Shown piece by piece: positions 2,289 through 36,205 of a stretch of 38,035 bases of DNA (the first letter of the stretch is position 1; each line of letters opens with the position of its first letter). Source of the DNA: a virus; the UHGV virus genome UHGV-0072754. One strand, written 5' to 3'. The notes beneath the pieces are model-generated. The model was not told the origin of the DNA, searched no databases, and saw only the letters and a list, made by a program, of their open reading frames with translations. The translations under genes were made by a program, and so were the position numbers.

Positions 2289-2884
2289 GGTTAGTTTCTC
2301 CGTGTTATAAGCGCTCTGCACAGCGCTGATTTTTGGTTGCACGAATCCCTCGCCTGATAGCGACAAAACATAAAGGGGGTTCGTTTTAGTAAGCACCCAA
2401 CCAGGGCACTTAGTGAAACGGGCGGCTGCCACCGCCAGTTAGCTTCTCCACAATTGGGAGCGCGTTCTCCTGAGTTGATCTAACGACTGAGGCCTCTCAA
2501 GGAACCGGCTGAACGCGCTTTCAGTTGTGAAAAGGGGCGGTCGACATTAAGGACATTCAAAACTGCCGACCGCCAAGACTACACACAGCATCTGGTACAG
2601 CTACGACGGTTTACACAACTGGAAGCGCACTCCGTTCGTTTACTTACCTGTCATCCACAACCGATAGTTGATGGAATGCGCTTTCATGTTATGTGCCGGG
2701 ATTCCACCGGCTCCCATCTGTTTTTTAAGCCACTCAGATATCGTCTGGGCTGTCACCTGATCGCCACGCTGGTGAAACGTCTCTGGCTGTCGTACACAAC
2801 TGGCTTGCACATTCCGGCTGCCCGCTGGATCGGGATACTGCCTAAGGAATCCCCAGACCGCTGCGGCACATGTGCCATATGCCG

Positions 2885-2945
2885 ATGACTAGAAGATAAT
2901 CATTAATTGCGAGTAACGCAAGTATTAAAATGCATATTACGCAAT
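2885..2945 (-). promoter_or_regulatory. Candidate leftward early promoter with operator-like palindromes (OL analogue)
   Basis: TTGCGAGTAACGCAA (2907-2921; perfect 5-bp inverted arms) and TACGCAA half-site at 2936-2942 share the motif of the cI-cro operators; on the minus strand TTGCGT-N17-TATCTT reads as -35/-10. Confidence 0.3.
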
Positions 2946-2953
2946 TTTGTGGA

Positions 2954-2985
2954 CAAAAAAAAACCTCACGTGAGGTCTTTTTTTC
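2954..2985. terminator. Bidirectional intrinsic terminator downstream of repressor gene
   Basis: A9 - perfect 14-bp palindrome ACCTCACGTGAGGT (2963-2976) - T-run. Confidence 0.7.
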
Positions 2986-2997
2986 CTGTAAATCTTG

Positions 2998-3693
2998 CTA
3001 GCCGTGCCGTTTAAAGGATTGCGACTGGCTTATTAAAACCTTTCCATAAATGTAGAATCTATGCTCGTTATCTTTTGTGATACTCCATTCCCGATATTTT
3101 GGATTGTCAGAGATAACAAGAAGCTGGTCAGGAATCATCTGGAGCCGTTTTACGTATATTTTTCCATCAAAACCAAACACATATATACCATCGCCATCAA
3201 ATTCATTTATGTTGACGTCAACAAAAATGAGGTCTCCTGGCTCGATGGTTGACGCCATACTGTCACCACGAACGTTAATAACTTTAACGCCAGAAGATGA
3301 CCTGCCTCCAAACATAGTTAATGCCTGATCATTGCTGTATTCAATAGCATGTATGACATCAATAACATCACTGCTCTGTATGTGTCCTGCTCCGGCGCTT
3401 GCGCTCACATCAAGTACCTCGACTCTATAAACATCACCAATGCTACGTGATGATGAATCACTTTCACTGTTTAAATATACAGTAGCCTCATTTTCTGCCG
3501 AGGTAAATAGGTCAGGGACTTTTACGCTTAAAGCGTGAGCAAGTCGGTTAAGTGTTTGTTCTGAAAACTGCTTTTGCTTGCCTGTTTCCAGGCGGGAAAT
3601 GTTGGCAGCATCAACCCCCACAGTTTCAGCAAGCTCTGCGATTTTCATGTTCTTCGCGAGGCGAAGTTGTCTGATGCGAGATCCTATATTCAT
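2998..3693 (-). CDS. CI-like prophage repressor, HTH N-domain plus S24 LexA-like autopeptidase C-domain (231 aa)
   Basis: HTH (IGSRIRQLRLAKNMKIAELAETVGVDAANISRLETGKQ); S24 motifs VRGDSMASTIEPGDLIFVD and GKIYVKRL (Ser/Lys dyad); AG in linker; start ATG 3693 with almost no SD (leaderless-type, as lambda cI from pRM). Confidence 0.8.
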   Translation of the reverse strand: MNIGSRIRQLRLAKNMKIAELAETVGVDAANISRLETGKQKQFSEQTLNRLAHALSVKVPDLFTSAENEATVYLNSESDSSSRSIGDVYRVEVLDVSASAGAGHIQSSDVIDVIHAIEYSNDQALTMFGGRSSSGVKVINVRGDSMASTIEPGDLIFVDVNINEFDGDGIYVFGFDGKIYVKRLQMIPDQLLVISDNPKYREWSITKDNEHRFYIYGKVLISQSQSFKRHG

Positions 3694-3790
3694 GCGTCCA
3701 TTACAAGTGTTTTTTGCGTGTCGTGCAAAGCAACTTGCGCAATTCGCCTGCATGGAATAACATGCGTAATACGCAAATAAAGGAGGCTTT
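3694..3790. promoter_or_regulatory. Immunity operator/promoter region (OR analogue) with divergent pRM-like and pR-like promoters
   Basis: Three operator-like sites: TTGCGTGTCGTGCAA (3714-3728), palindrome TTGCGCAA (3735-3742), perfect 13-bp palindrome TGCGTAATACGCA (3763-3775); plus strand TTGCGC-N17-TAACAT, minus strand TTGCAC-N17-TGTAAT. Confidence 0.6.
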
Positions 3791-4048
3791 ATGCAATCAC
3801 CGTTAAGAAAATTGCGTAAATCGCACGGTATGACCTTGTTGCATGTTGCAACAGGCGTACAGGTCGACCCGGCAACTTTAAGTCGCATTGAAAGATGTGA
3901 ACAGGTTCCATCAGTTGAACTGGCAGAACGTTTAGCCAAGTTCTTCAAAGGCGAGATCAGCGAATTACATATTTTATACCCGAGCCGCTACCAGGTTGCT
4001 GATGACGCATCGGGTAAAGGCAATCGTAATGCGAAAGCAGCCGTCTGA
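3791..4048 (+). CDS. Cro-like HTH regulator (85 aa)
   Basis: AAGGAGG SD then ATG; HTH-like LRKSHGMTLLHVATGVQVDPATLSRIER; divergent from repressor. Confidence 0.65.
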   Translation: MQSPLRKLRKSHGMTLLHVATGVQVDPATLSRIERCEQVPSVELAERLAKFFKGEISELHILYPSRYQVADDASGKGNRNAKAAV

Positions 4049-4070
4049 AAACTACCAAAGGAAAAACAAC

Positions 4071-4541
4071 ATGGTAGAGCCAAGCCTGAAAGAAGTAGTG
4101 AAAGCGATGTGCAAAGCGTACCCCGGAGGCCGTGAGGCTATGGCAGGTGCTCTTGGCATGTCAGTCACGCAGTTCAATAACAATCTGTACGAGAAGAACG
4201 GCTGCCGGTTCTTCGAGGTGAACGAGCTGGAAGCGATGGAGGACATTTCAAACACGTCTTTCCTGGCTGATTACTTCGCGCAACGTCGCGGCGCTCTCCT
4301 GGTGGAAGTTCCGCAACTTGAAGACCTCGATCGCGTTGACCTATTCACCCGTGCAATGAGAACTGCAGCAGCACGCGGTCAGGTTGATCAGATCATTCAG
4401 AAGGCGCTGGAAGATGGAGTGATTGAAGCGCATGAAGCGGAAGAAATTAACGAGTATCACCGCCGTCATCTGGCAGCGCGTGAAGAAGAAATCCGCGCGA
4501 TTGTCGCGCTGTTTAGCCGTAAGCAAAGCCAAAAAAAGTGA
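4071..4541 (+). CDS. cII-position regulatory protein (YdaT-like by position; family not verified)
   Basis: ATG 4071 with AAGGA SD; immediately downstream of cro-like gene; GC-rich hairpin GACGCCCG...CGGGCGTC follows the stop. Confidence 0.45.
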   Translation: MVEPSLKEVVKAMCKAYPGGREAMAGALGMSVTQFNNNLYEKNGCRFFEVNELEAMEDISNTSFLADYFAQRRGALLVEVPQLEDLDRVDLFTRAMRTAAARGQVDQIIQKALEDGVIEAHEAEEINEYHRRHLAAREEEIRAIVALFSRKQSQKK

Positions 4542-35150: not shown

Positions 35151-35417
35151 TTACAGGCCAACCTGGCGAACGGTCGGGAACTCAGAAACCAGCCACATAT
35201 CGGACTCTTCAAACATTTCCTCCAGCATGCGGTTCAGTTTTTCCCGATCGCTTTTGCTGGCATCGCTATTCAGGCCGTTTGCCTGCATCGGCTTCACCTT
35301 CACTTCGGCATCAGGGAAAATCTGGTGCACCCGCTTCTTCAACTCGGCCAGTATGATCTCTCTGGCCCCTTCGAGCCCCTCTACATTTCGCTTGTCATAA
35401 ACCAACTCAACGAACAT
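35151..35417 (-). CDS. DinI-like damage-inducible protein (88 aa)
   Basis: C-terminus EEMFEESDMWLVSE matches the DinI signature (E. coli DinI ends ...ETWESADDWFVSE); GGAGAG SD; LexA box in promoter. Confidence 0.75.
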   Translation of the reverse strand: MFVELVYDKRNVEGLEGAREIILAELKKRVHQIFPDAEVKVKPMQANGLNSDASKSDREKLNRMLEEMFEESDMWLVSEFPTVRQVGL

Positions 35418-35460
35418 CACTCTCCATCCTTGCTGACTTGATCTGGTGAAACAAAAATAC

Positions 35461-35480
35461 TACTGTATATGCATACAGTC
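35461..35480. promoter_or_regulatory. LexA box (SOS operator) between divergent genes
   Basis: TACTGTATATGCATACAGTC, perfect CTGT-N8-ACAG palindrome; on minus strand it sits in the spacer of TTGACT-N17-TATTTT. Confidence 0.75.
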
Positions 35481-35503
35481 AATAATCAAGTGAGGGTGCT
35501 GCT

Positions 35504-35743
35504 ATGCCTCGCCAATATGATATTCACGCAGCTTTTTTAGCCTCTATAGAACAGAATCCAAAGGGCTACCTTTGCCTAAAAACAAACAAATTCATCAATA
35601 ATTTGCGCGAGAAGAACTGGCATTTCAGCCAGGCAGACGCTAACGCATGGATTGAGAGATACCAGCCTGATTTTGCTGATAAGACGACGGATGGCAGTGA
35701 TAACCGTTACTGGATCTTGCGAAATATGGGGAGGGTATTCTGA
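35504..35743 (+). CDS. Hypothetical protein (79 aa), first gene of LexA-box-proximal operon
   Basis: GAGGG SD; 24 nt downstream of the LexA box; ATGA-coupled to next gene. Confidence 0.5.
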   Translation: MPRQYDIHAAFLASIEQNPKGYLCLKTNKFINNLREKNWHFSQADANAWIERYQPDFADKTTDGSDNRYWILRNMGRVF

Positions 35744-36063
35744 TGGGCTTTCCTTCACCAGCAATGGATTACCAGGAACAACGGTTAACCATCGATCTGT
35801 TATGCGGAATTGATGGAAACTGCAGGGTAATAGAAACGTCATGCGGTTGGGCTGTCATTAACGTTGCCATGAGGCCAGAGCAGGGAGATACGCTACTGGT
35901 AAGAATGGATAACAGGAACGAGTTTGCAAAGCTATACGGGGCGGCATTGATAACTGAAGATGGTGAAGCGATAGAAGGCGACGCGCTGGATGACGTGGAG
36001 GTTTTTGGCGTGCTAACGCATAGTCTTAACCGGGTTGGTAATGATGACTGCCCGGCAATTTAA
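35743..36063 (+). CDS. UmuD'-like protein lacking the Ser/Lys catalytic dyad (106 aa)
   Basis: N-terminus MGFPSPAMDYQEQR matches UmuD residues 25-38 (GFPSPAADYVEQR) and C-terminus DVEVFGVLTHSL matches DTLDVFGVVIHV; no GDSM motif. Confidence 0.55.
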   Translation: MGFPSPAMDYQEQRLTIDLLCGIDGNCRVIETSCGWAVINVAMRPEQGDTLLVRMDNRNEFAKLYGAALITEDGEAIEGDALDDVEVFGVLTHSLNRVGNDDCPAI

Positions 36064-36156: not shown

Positions 36157-36205
36157 TGGTCGGCACGAGAGGATTTGAACCTCCGACCCCCGACACCCCA
36201 TGATG
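36157..36205 (-). other. tRNA-Pro(GGG) 3' fragment (~47 nt, anticodon loop to CCA); relic attachment-site candidate
   Basis: Minus-strand sequence TCATGGGGTGTCGGGGGTCGGAGGTTCAAATCCTCTCGTGCCGACCA matches the 3' part of E. coli proL as recalled; no 5' half present. Confidence 0.65.

Follow-up and report, generated by a model that had tools for sequence, protein, structure and literature searches.

The viral genome UHGV-0072754, a DNA of 38,035 nucleotides (nt) that we refer to in its entirety as the window, carries on its minus strand a gene for a cI-type repressor, and this gene holds a LexA box (SOS box) in the part that encodes the protein linker. The box is kept as nucleotides among relatives of the gene while the linker peptide varies, and host LexA most likely binds it, judging from the comparison of these genes. 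The switch to which the gene belongs, as first described in an earlier note on this DNA, is a routine lambdoid switch; the novelty lies in the conserved internal LexA operator. That earlier account of the locus did not contain the internal box. A search of the literature, confined to open-access papers and therefore weak evidence, found no description of an intragenic LexA box or of a short repressor isoform, and no ChIP or EMSA data on the internal box.

A LexA box inside the repressor gene

The gene and the box are located as follows.

2998–3693, minus strand: repressor gene (ATG at 3693, stop at 2998; from the open reading frame [ORF] and its translation), 231 amino acids (aa), HTH_3 plus Peptidase_S24, of the FsoR/SfII-cI type
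3465–3484, read on the sense strand of the gene: internal LexA box, TACTGTATATTTAAACAGTG, over codons 70–77 (linker), differing from the 20-mer consensus at three positions

When the window was scanned with the SOS-box consensus, two matches were obtained, this box and one in a distal module, and none of 100 shuffled sequences gave a match at the level of three mismatches. The internal box fits the CTGT-N8-ACAG palindrome with an AT-rich spacer and is close to the consensus TACTGTATATATATACAGTA. Of 129 unique related genes, 127 retain its CTG-N10-CAG core, among them those of SfII, the Stx2k phage and Fels-1.

As protein, the repressor linker is hypervariable (about 2–2.8 bits per residue), whereas the arms of the box are fixed as nucleotides. 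At codon 70, the residue is hypervariable (2.0 bits), yet the third base is T in 71 of 72 genes. The Thr71 codon is always ACT, and the one lineage with Ala at this position uses GCT; residue 75 is limited to N, Y, H, and D, which is the exact set of residues encoded by NAC codons; and the Ser76 codon is AGT in 69 of 70 genes. The residues encoded by the box spacer vary freely (Y/H/C/F, L/I/K). When 73 conserved four-fold or six-fold degenerate columns were ranked by codon conservation over 22 cluster representatives, the codons of the box came 1st, 2nd, and 4th (the median share of the top codon is 0.45). By this codon-level comparison, the internal LexA box is under selection at the level of DNA and not of the peptide.

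The arrangement around the box resembles that of umuD-type promoters. A pattern search of IMG/VR for a LexA box followed by GDSM codons 185–215 nt later yielded two classes of genes: umuD-like genes, in which the box lies 35–42 nt upstream of the ATG, and repressors with the box within the gene. In the phage umuD-like promoters, as in umuDC-type promoters generally, the TACTGT arm of the box forms the −10 element, and a −35 hexamer (TTGATC, TTGATA, TTGCCA, or TTGCTA in the phage genes) stands exactly 17 nt upstream. The hexamer at this distance in the repressors is TTTACC (window and SfII) or TTTTCA (Fels-1), and the Phe63 codon is TTT in 71 of 72 genes. The distance from the box to the GDSM codons is likewise similar, 226–229 nt in these repressors and 215–240 nt in umuD-like phage genes. 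The window holds two further candidate elements.

3502–3507, minus strand: −35-like hexamer TTTACC of a candidate internal promoter, 17 nt upstream of the TACTGT box arm
3406–3420, minus strand: candidate internal ribosome site, with GAGGT (3420–3416), 7 nt, and an in-frame GTG at Val96 (3408–3406)

Downstream of the box, an in-frame GTG, the Val of D-V-Y/F-R, lies exactly 32 nt away in 13 of 21 clusters and is preceded by strings of the GGAG/GAGG type. In 19 of the 21 clusters, the best internal in-frame combination of Shine-Dalgarno (SD) sequence and start codon of the whole gene falls within 32 codons after the box, a placement that randomization of synonymous codons reproduces in only 1–25% of trials per cluster. 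At Val88, 18 of 19 cluster representatives use GTG, compared with 20% GTG at other Val codons, and this codon ranks 3rd of the 73 columns. The window is the exception, having GTT at Val88 (3432–3430) with no SD before it; its best internal in-frame SD and start is GAGGT-N7-GTG at Val96 (−7.3 kcal/mol). Within the window's own cluster, every member has a GTG with an SD at Val88 or Val96.

The best reading of the internal box is that it would repress a umuD-type internal promoter, and the box, its geometry, and the in-frame GTG together suggest a LexA-repressed internal promoter that gives rise to an SOS-induced C-terminal isoform. We tentatively extend this to a nested gene, a proposal that we hold as plausible but at less than even confidence, in which a LexA-repressed promoter and a GTG restart (Val88 in most of the family, Val96 in the window) would yield a short isoform that pairs with the full-length repressor or competes for RecA. 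Such a fast, LexA-gated modifier would be family-wide, including Fels-1 and the Stx2k phages. The predicted isoform of 136–144 aa (136 aa in the window) would contain the cleavage site and the S24/dimerization domain and would match UmuD in size and layout. Two roles are conceivable for it: that of an antirepressor, which poisons repressor dimers, or that of a protector, which competes for activated RecA as a counterpart of 434 Hex (PMC3564112).

As a simpler alternative, LexA at the internal box could be a roadblock for, or a modulator of, transcription of the full-length repressor gene from pRM or pRE, limiting repressor synthesis until LexA is cleaved. Several observations speak for this alternative or weigh against the nested gene: the −35-like hexamer is weak, as TTTACC-17-TACTGT matches the consensus at 7 of 12 positions and is not called by the promoter scan; the window lacks the family's GTG start at Val88; 32 of 127 genes have no clear SD and start at Val88 or Val96 under the criteria used; and the clusters are mutually non-independent. 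However, real umuD-type promoters have exactly this 17-nt geometry, and an SD and GTG are fixed 32 nt after the box in most clusters, neither of which a roadblock predicts. We therefore regard the roadblock as possible but rather unlikely. A further alternative denies the box any function at the DNA level and takes it as a reflection of the linker peptide (T-V-x-x-N-S) or of shared ancestry, given that the box lies in coding sequence and that the sequences compared are related. Since the codons of the box arms are fixed while the encoded residues and the spacer vary, and since these codons occupy such high ranks among the 73 columns, this explanation is very improbable. The LexA-repressed internal promoter is the reading that we carry forward.

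Other candidates around the box were rejected. An antisense promoter at the LexA box has a good −10 (TATCAT) in only about 31 of 72 genes, the window having CCTCAT. Out-of-frame small ORFs after the box (3405–3467 in the window, 20 aa; a 27-aa ORF in the +1 frame in Fels-1) are conserved in neither length nor presence. Two loci, L167 and L211, that looked like stand-alone genes for the C-terminal domain with an upstream LexA box are artifacts, as these loci begin inside the gene.

The repressor and its operators

The domains and the catalytic positions of the repressor are encoded at the following places.

3511–3687, minus strand: helix-turn-helix (HTH; Cro/C1-type) DNA-binding domain, residues 3–61 (Pfam HTH_3/HTH_31)
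3391–3396, minus strand: codons of Ala100-Gly101, the predicted scissile bond; ASAGxG is invariant in homologues
3259–3261, minus strand: codon of Ser145 (GDSM), the predicted nucleophile; invariant, and aligned with LexA Ser119 and the UmuD GDSM
3148–3150, minus strand: codon of Lys182 (VKRLQ), the predicted general base; invariant, and aligned with LexA Lys156 and the UmuD KKL

Pfam assigns residues 3–61 to PF01381 (HTH_3) and related families and residues 97–219 to PF00717 (Peptidase_S24; E = 8.6e-21, 74 bits against a cut-off of 23.3). In the PDB, the N-terminal domain matches the N-terminal domains of 434 repressor, SinR, and P22 C2, and the S24 domain matches chains of UmuD' and LexA. 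We built a profile from 12 homologues and judged the invariance of motifs over 51–87% identity; A98-S99-A100-G101-x-G103, G143-D-S-M146, and V181-K-R-L-Q185 are invariant in all 12. The profile aligns residues 138–209 with residues 112–183 of the E. coli LexA chain (1jhf) without a net gap, so that Ser145 corresponds to LexA Ser119 and Lys182 to LexA Lys156. A phmmer alignment with UmuD' likewise places GDSM on GDSM and KRL on KKL, and the distance from Ser to Lys, 37 residues, is the same as in LexA and UmuD. The linker (VSASAGAGH) holds two Ala-Gly pairs; since residue 102 varies across the 12 homologues and A98-S99-A100-G101-x-G103 is fixed, the conserved pair is Ala100-Gly101. This pair falls inside the S24 profile match, and the LexA alignment obtained (chain residues 112–183) does not reach LexA Ala84-Gly85. 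By these alignments, the repressor is an S24 protein of the LexA/cI type with all catalytic motifs intact. The full Ser-Lys dyad and the AG linker site that the earlier note had read in the protein are both borne out, with the second AG pair of the linker unconserved.

From these motifs and from the homologue FsoR of Fels-1, we infer that the repressor cleaves itself. FsoR (STM0898) has 231 aa, an HTH and an S24 domain, and the ASAG, GDSM, and VKRLQ motifs, and is 53% identical to the repressor over its full length. Mitomycin C treatment leads to cleavage products of C-terminally tagged FsoR (Lemire et al. 2011, PMC3121763), and a Fels-1 late-operon fusion remains inducible in a lexA3(Ind-) host, such that cleavage of LexA is dispensable (PMC3121763). 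RecA-type cleavage in this repressor family finds its best support in the cleavage of FsoR, and for the protein of the window the same would be expected by homology. Since Fels-1 is induced in the lexA3 host, the short isoform proposed above cannot be essential for induction.

The operator motif is the 15-bp sequence TTGCG-N5-CGCAA, against which mismatches were counted, and conservation was counted over 82 unique related regulatory contexts. The sites are labeled by their location at the right (OR) or left (OL) operator region and are listed with the putative promoters that they overlap.

2907–2921: OL1, TTGCGAGTAACGCAA, no mismatch; over the −35 and spacer of pL; invariant in the relatives L001 and L002
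2930–2944: OL2, ATGCATATTACGCAA, two mismatches; relatives are nearer to the consensus, e.g., GTGCGTAAAACGCAA
3714–3728: O3, TTGCGTGTCGTGCAA, one mismatch; over the −35 and spacer of pRM
3735–3749: O2, TTGCGCAATTCGCCT, two mismatches; the left arm is the −35 of pR, the right arm is weak
3762–3776: O1, ATGCGTAATACGCAA, one mismatch; at the start region of pR; holds a 13-bp palindrome, TGCGTAATACGCA, at 3763–3775
3812–3826: O4, operator-like, TTGCGTAAATCGCAC; in the first codons of cro, some 50 bp downstream of O1
3735–3763, plus strand: putative pR-like promoter into cro, −35 TTGCGC (3735–3740), 17 nt, −10 TAACAT (3758–3763)
3700–3728, minus strand: putative pRM-like promoter, −35 TTGCAC (3728–3723), 17 nt, −10 TGTAAT (3705–3700)
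2893–2921, minus strand: putative pL-like promoter, −35 TTGCGT (2921–2916), 17 nt, −10 TATCTT (2898–2893)

Over the 82 contexts, the arms of the sites are 95–100% conserved overall, and spacer positions fall to 40–70%. O3 has at most one mismatch in 81 contexts (arms 98–100%, spacer positions 40–92%), O1 differs from the motif at one position in 76 contexts and at two in the remaining 6, and O4 has at most one mismatch in 74. The arms of O4 persist through changes of the encoded residues (Leu/Met/Val; Ser/Ala) and at third-codon positions. After the repressor terminator, two sites 22–23 bp apart are present in 74 of the 82 contexts. O2 differs in that its left arm and the next CAA are 98–100% conserved and its right arm 63–84%, with up to five mismatches in relatives; its register is also ambiguous, as the left-arm stretch TTGCGCAA is an 8-bp palindrome by itself. 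O2 is either a weak operator that would need help from its neighbors or mainly the −35 of pR.

The sites stand at constant offsets from the repressor ATG in loci with 51–100% protein identity, and OR reaches 94% identity where the immunity modules of the genomes compared, taken as a whole, show about 80%. They are clustered above chance: seven sites with at most two mismatches fall within 1 kb, compared with a maximum of six in 300 dinucleotide shuffles, and all four sites with at most one mismatch fall within 1 kb, compared with a maximum of three. A Yersinia relative that is 49–51% identical (by tblastn and alignment) retains the TTGCG/CGCAA motif. Two loci with a different N-terminal domain, the Klebsiella relative L014 and Fels-1, have other repeats instead, so the operator motif follows the DNA-binding domain. 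In these comparisons, the TTGCG/CGCAA sites behave as operators, as supported by their fixed positions, conserved arms, variable spacers, and overlap with the putative pR, pRM, and pL.

These results modify the earlier description of the sites. The earlier note had listed five operator-like sites, three at OR and two downstream of the repressor gene; all five are present with the shared TTGCG/CGCAA arms and four are well conserved, whereas the middle OR site keeps the left arm only. The list lacked a sixth conserved site, O4, in cro (3812–3826). The perfect 13-bp palindrome is present as described, but instead of lying over the −10 of pR, it overlaps only the last base of the best −10 and covers the start region. 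Lambda-like cooperativity, as claimed earlier, would be compatible with the spacings, which are 21 and 27 bp at OR and 22–23 bp at OL, with OL and OR about 830 bp apart. A weak operator-like 15-mer, TTGCGCTCACATCAA, was also seen on the plus strand at 3399–3413 inside the repressor gene; it has two mismatches and overlaps the candidate Val96 GTG. The stretch shows reduced synonymous variation, for which an operator, a ribosome site, or linkage are candidate causes.

The layout of the putative promoters is also shared among relatives. The −35 hexamers of pR, pRM, and pL each form the left arm of an operator site. The −10 of pR is TAACAT, TAATAT, or TAAAAT in relatives at the same spacing, and the promoter scores below the 9-of-12 threshold of the promoter scan. 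The −10 of pRM (TnnAAT) ends 6 nt before the ATG, with no SD, in relatives down to 51% identity, and repressor mRNA from pRM is probably leaderless, by analogy with the lambda cI mRNA from pRM, which is leaderless. The pL layout TTGCGY-17-TATCNT recurs in five relatives (L001–L003, L005, and L006). A second operator cluster over the putative leftward early promoter is thus present, with its distal site starting at the conserved TTGCGY-17-TATCNT.

We consider it highly probable that the region is the lysis/lysogeny switch of a lambdoid prophage, built of a repressor of the Fels-1 FsoR/SfII cI group, its operators, and RecA-stimulated cleavage, to which LexA at the internal box is added. The HTH domain of the repressor presumably binds the 15-bp sites as a dimer. 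O3 would cover the −35 and spacer of the repressor's own promoter, the weak O2 would cover those of pR, and O1 would lie at the pR start; O4 would lie about 50 bp downstream in cro, and the two OL sites, 23 bp apart, over the leftward promoter beyond the terminator. Repressor bound at the OR and OL sites would therefore shut both early promoters and limit its own synthesis. These operator sites probably serve the Cro-like protein as well. Induction would be lambda-like: activated RecA would stimulate the S24 domain (Ser145/Lys182) to cut Ala100-Gly101, and the cut would separate the DNA-binding from the dimerization domain. Of this account, the domain content, the invariance of the motifs, and the positions, conservation, and clustering of the sites are observed, whereas binding, promoter assignments, cleavage, and any action of the internal LexA box are predicted.

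The distal LexA-box module and competing explanations

The second match to the SOS-box consensus lies near the other end of the window.

35461–35480: distal LexA box, TACTGTATATGCATACAGTC, flanked by the DinI-like gene on the minus strand and by a 79-aa and a 106-aa ORF on the plus strand
35151–35420, minus strand: DinI-like gene (PF06183)

The module spans 35151–36063 and comprises the DinI-like gene, the 79-aa ORF, and the 106-aa UmuD'-like ORF. The 79-aa ORF belongs to PHROG 3893, of unknown function, matches no Pfam family above the cut-off, and is labeled "hypothetical" in all phage records, including HK140, mEp390, and HK225; compared with the first 12 kb of Fels-1, where fsoA lies, it gave no match. 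The 106-aa ORF aligns with UmuD from Gly25 on, has neither GDSM nor a catalytic serine, and begins at a GFPSPA motif, just after the UmuD cleavage site. As antirepressors, the 79-aa and 106-aa ORFs were rejected for lack of homology in Pfam, PHROG, and phage records and, for the 79-aa ORF, in that part of Fels-1, with Tum, GfoA, and GftA outside the comparison. LexA-controlled dinI-like cargo beside tail-fiber genes is known in other phages (PMC7556043). The distal module is SOS-regulated and might modulate RecA; no link between it and the switch was found. Of the two SOS inputs that the earlier note had assigned to the prophage, repressor cleavage is supported by the motifs and by the homology to FsoR, whereas the distal LexA module has no such link to the switch. 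The internal box is the better-supported second SOS connection.

An explanation that competes with self-cleavage is that a LexA-controlled antirepressor, encoded in the distal module or within the repressor gene, inactivates the repressor, as in Gifsy, 186, and N15, and that the S24 domain serves mostly for dimerization. The prophage does hold two strong LexA boxes, where none is expected from shuffles, a 79-aa ORF of unknown function follows the distal box, and LexA-controlled dinI-antirepressor operons are common in enterobacterial prophages (PMC3121763). However, the invariance of every catalytic and cleavage-site residue within the family speaks for an active protease; FsoR, the homologue, does undergo cleavage, and Fels-1 is still induced in lexA3(Ind-); and the 79-aa ORF has no antirepressor annotation and no counterpart in the first 12 kb of Fels-1. 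This explanation is improbable. Another would take the TTGCG/CGCAA repeats as mainly promoter −35 elements (TTGCGC, TTGCGT, and TTGCAC) together with Cro sites, the palindromes being incidental. It can point to the three of six sites that start exactly at a −35 hexamer, to the chance-level motif count over the whole window, and to O2, which has no conserved second arm. Yet O1, O4, and OL2 stand off the −35 positions and keep both arms at the fixed 5-bp spacing in relatives, the arms are conserved while the spacers vary, and the motif is lost when the N-terminal domain changes. We regard it as quite improbable.

Some of these facts also bear directly on the switch as we describe it and count against it. 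Over the whole window, 26 sites with at most two mismatches were found (29.4 expected) and 4 with at most one (2.6 expected); with no enrichment at this scale, the operator argument is one of clustering and conservation only. The right arm of O2 is unconserved, and OR may consist of two full sites plus a half-site or promoter element. Three sites coincide with −35 hexamers, such that their conservation may in part be promoter conservation, and O4 sits in coding sequence. In the repressor, the distance from the Ala-Gly pair to the Ser is 45 residues, longer than the 35–38 residues in LexA, UmuD, and lambda cI. The sole relative for which cleavage has been shown experimentally is only 53% identical, and close relatives dominate the comparison set. 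The lambdoid switch with a cleavable repressor nevertheless remains the reading that we favor.

Neighboring features, relatives, and known systems

Three further features complete the immunity region.

2953–2986: bidirectional intrinsic terminator after the repressor gene and before OL (terminator scan; RNA fold −18.3 kcal/mol, z = −4.4)
3791–4048, plus strand: cro-like gene, 85 aa, HTH_3 (ORF and Pfam)
4071–4541, plus strand: cII-like gene of the Phage_CP76/YmfL type (Pfam PF06892, E = 2e-14; RefSeq names in relatives)

The order of repressor, divergent cro, and cII-type gene is that of a lambdoid immunity region and is annotated likewise in SfII and RefSeq prophages. The translations show similar recognition-helix regions in the Cro-like protein (DPATLSRIE) and the repressor (DAANISRLE). 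The immunity module, taken from about 2876 to past 4600, is about 80% identical to Klebsiella prophages (e.g., phage 1 LV-2017) and, at the same level, to prophages in 19 complete E. coli genomes. The repressor itself is 87% identical to Klebsiella prophage repressors, 72% to Shigella phage SfII cI, 71% to that of Stx2k phage phiSTEC1575, and 49% to a Yersinia phage repressor, and it has at least 574 relatives in IMG/VR. A 94%-identical copy of the enterobacterial repressor and OR was found on a 1.4-kb contig (L010, NZ_JBHSON010000232.1) labeled Actinomadura rugatobispora, and is probably contamination in that assembly.

Several observations concern the flanks. Similarity to the Klebsiella and E. 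coli immunity modules begins at about 2876, just past the putative pL start, which looks like a mosaic boundary. The first leftward ORFs (2753–2878 and 1929–2432) have no known function. The first transcribed bases of the leftward operon hold a 12-bp perfect palindrome, GGCACATGTGCC, at 2865–2876, which is non-palindromic in L001 and L002. At 36158–36205, the minus strand resembles the 3' part of a tRNA (T-arm, acceptor end, ...GGTTCAAATCCTCTCGTGCCGACCA) and is probably an attachment-site remnant at the prophage end; ARAGORN found no complete tRNA in the window. An Rfam scan of 2300–4300 gave nothing near threshold. A small RNA like svsR/co293, which lies at the 3' end of a cI gene (PMC12803456), was considered and rejected, as no test here ties such an RNA to the locus.

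Of the known systems, Fels-1 FsoR is the closest one with experimental data on cleavage. Apart from the shared length, domains, and motifs, its linker-coding part carries a LexA box in the same place (TACTGTAAATAAATACAGTG), with AGGAG-N7-GTG 32 nt after it; its operator repeats, however, are of the ATGT/ACAT type. The internal LexA box of FsoR is unmentioned in the published work (PMC3121763). SfII cI and the phiSTEC1575 repressor share with the window the operator motif, the OR/OL layout, and a LexA box at +209 (in SfII, TACTGTATATAAAAACAGTA); they differ in OL arms of TTGCA where the window has TTGCG, and they are annotated by similarity only. We found no functional study of either repressor.

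The lambda switch likewise has a divergent repressor and cro, several operators over pR and pRM, a second set over pL, cII downstream, and an S24 self-cleaving, RecA-activated repressor with leaderless mRNA, the last two being predicted features in the window. Unlike lambda, the window has an N-terminal domain of the 434/P22/SinR HTH_3 type, 15-bp sites with 5-bp arms spaced 21 and 27 bp apart, an extra site in cro, only two OL sites, and a LexA box in the repressor gene. Its OL and OR are separated by about 0.8 kb that contains no rex-like genes.

The predicted short product resembles UmuD in size (136–144 aa) and in its short arm, cleavage site, and S24 domain. Unlike umuDC, the cassette would lie in frame within a longer gene, start at GTG, and have no polymerase V partner. 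With the antirepressors 186 Tum, Gifsy GfoA/GftA, Fels-1 FsoA, and N15 AntC, it would share a second SOS input through LexA instead of RecA (PMC3121763). Those antirepressors are separate small genes whose products bind a non-cleavable repressor, whereas the candidate here is an in-frame C-terminal isoform of a cleavable one. The gene for the 434 Hex protein likewise sits at the repressor locus and overlaps part of cI, and Hex modulates the cleavage that RecA stimulates (PMC3564112), but it is out of frame, made from the pRM transcript, and not under LexA control. In Rpn_S, C-terminal domains are translated separately from inside a longer gene (bioRxiv 10.1101/2023.05.02.539157), again without LexA control.

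The analysis defines TTGCG-N5-CGCAA as the operator consensus of a common immunity group of Klebsiella, E. coli, Citrobacter, and Shigella prophages, including SfII and the Stx2k phage. Two routes of prophage induction are usually distinguished, one through repressor cleavage stimulated by RecA and one through an antirepressor under LexA control; if the nested isoform is real, one gene would combine the two. Models of induction thresholds, spontaneous induction, and prophage cross-talk would then change, and an SOS-induced short form would mimic the cleavage product in western blots of C-terminally tagged repressors.

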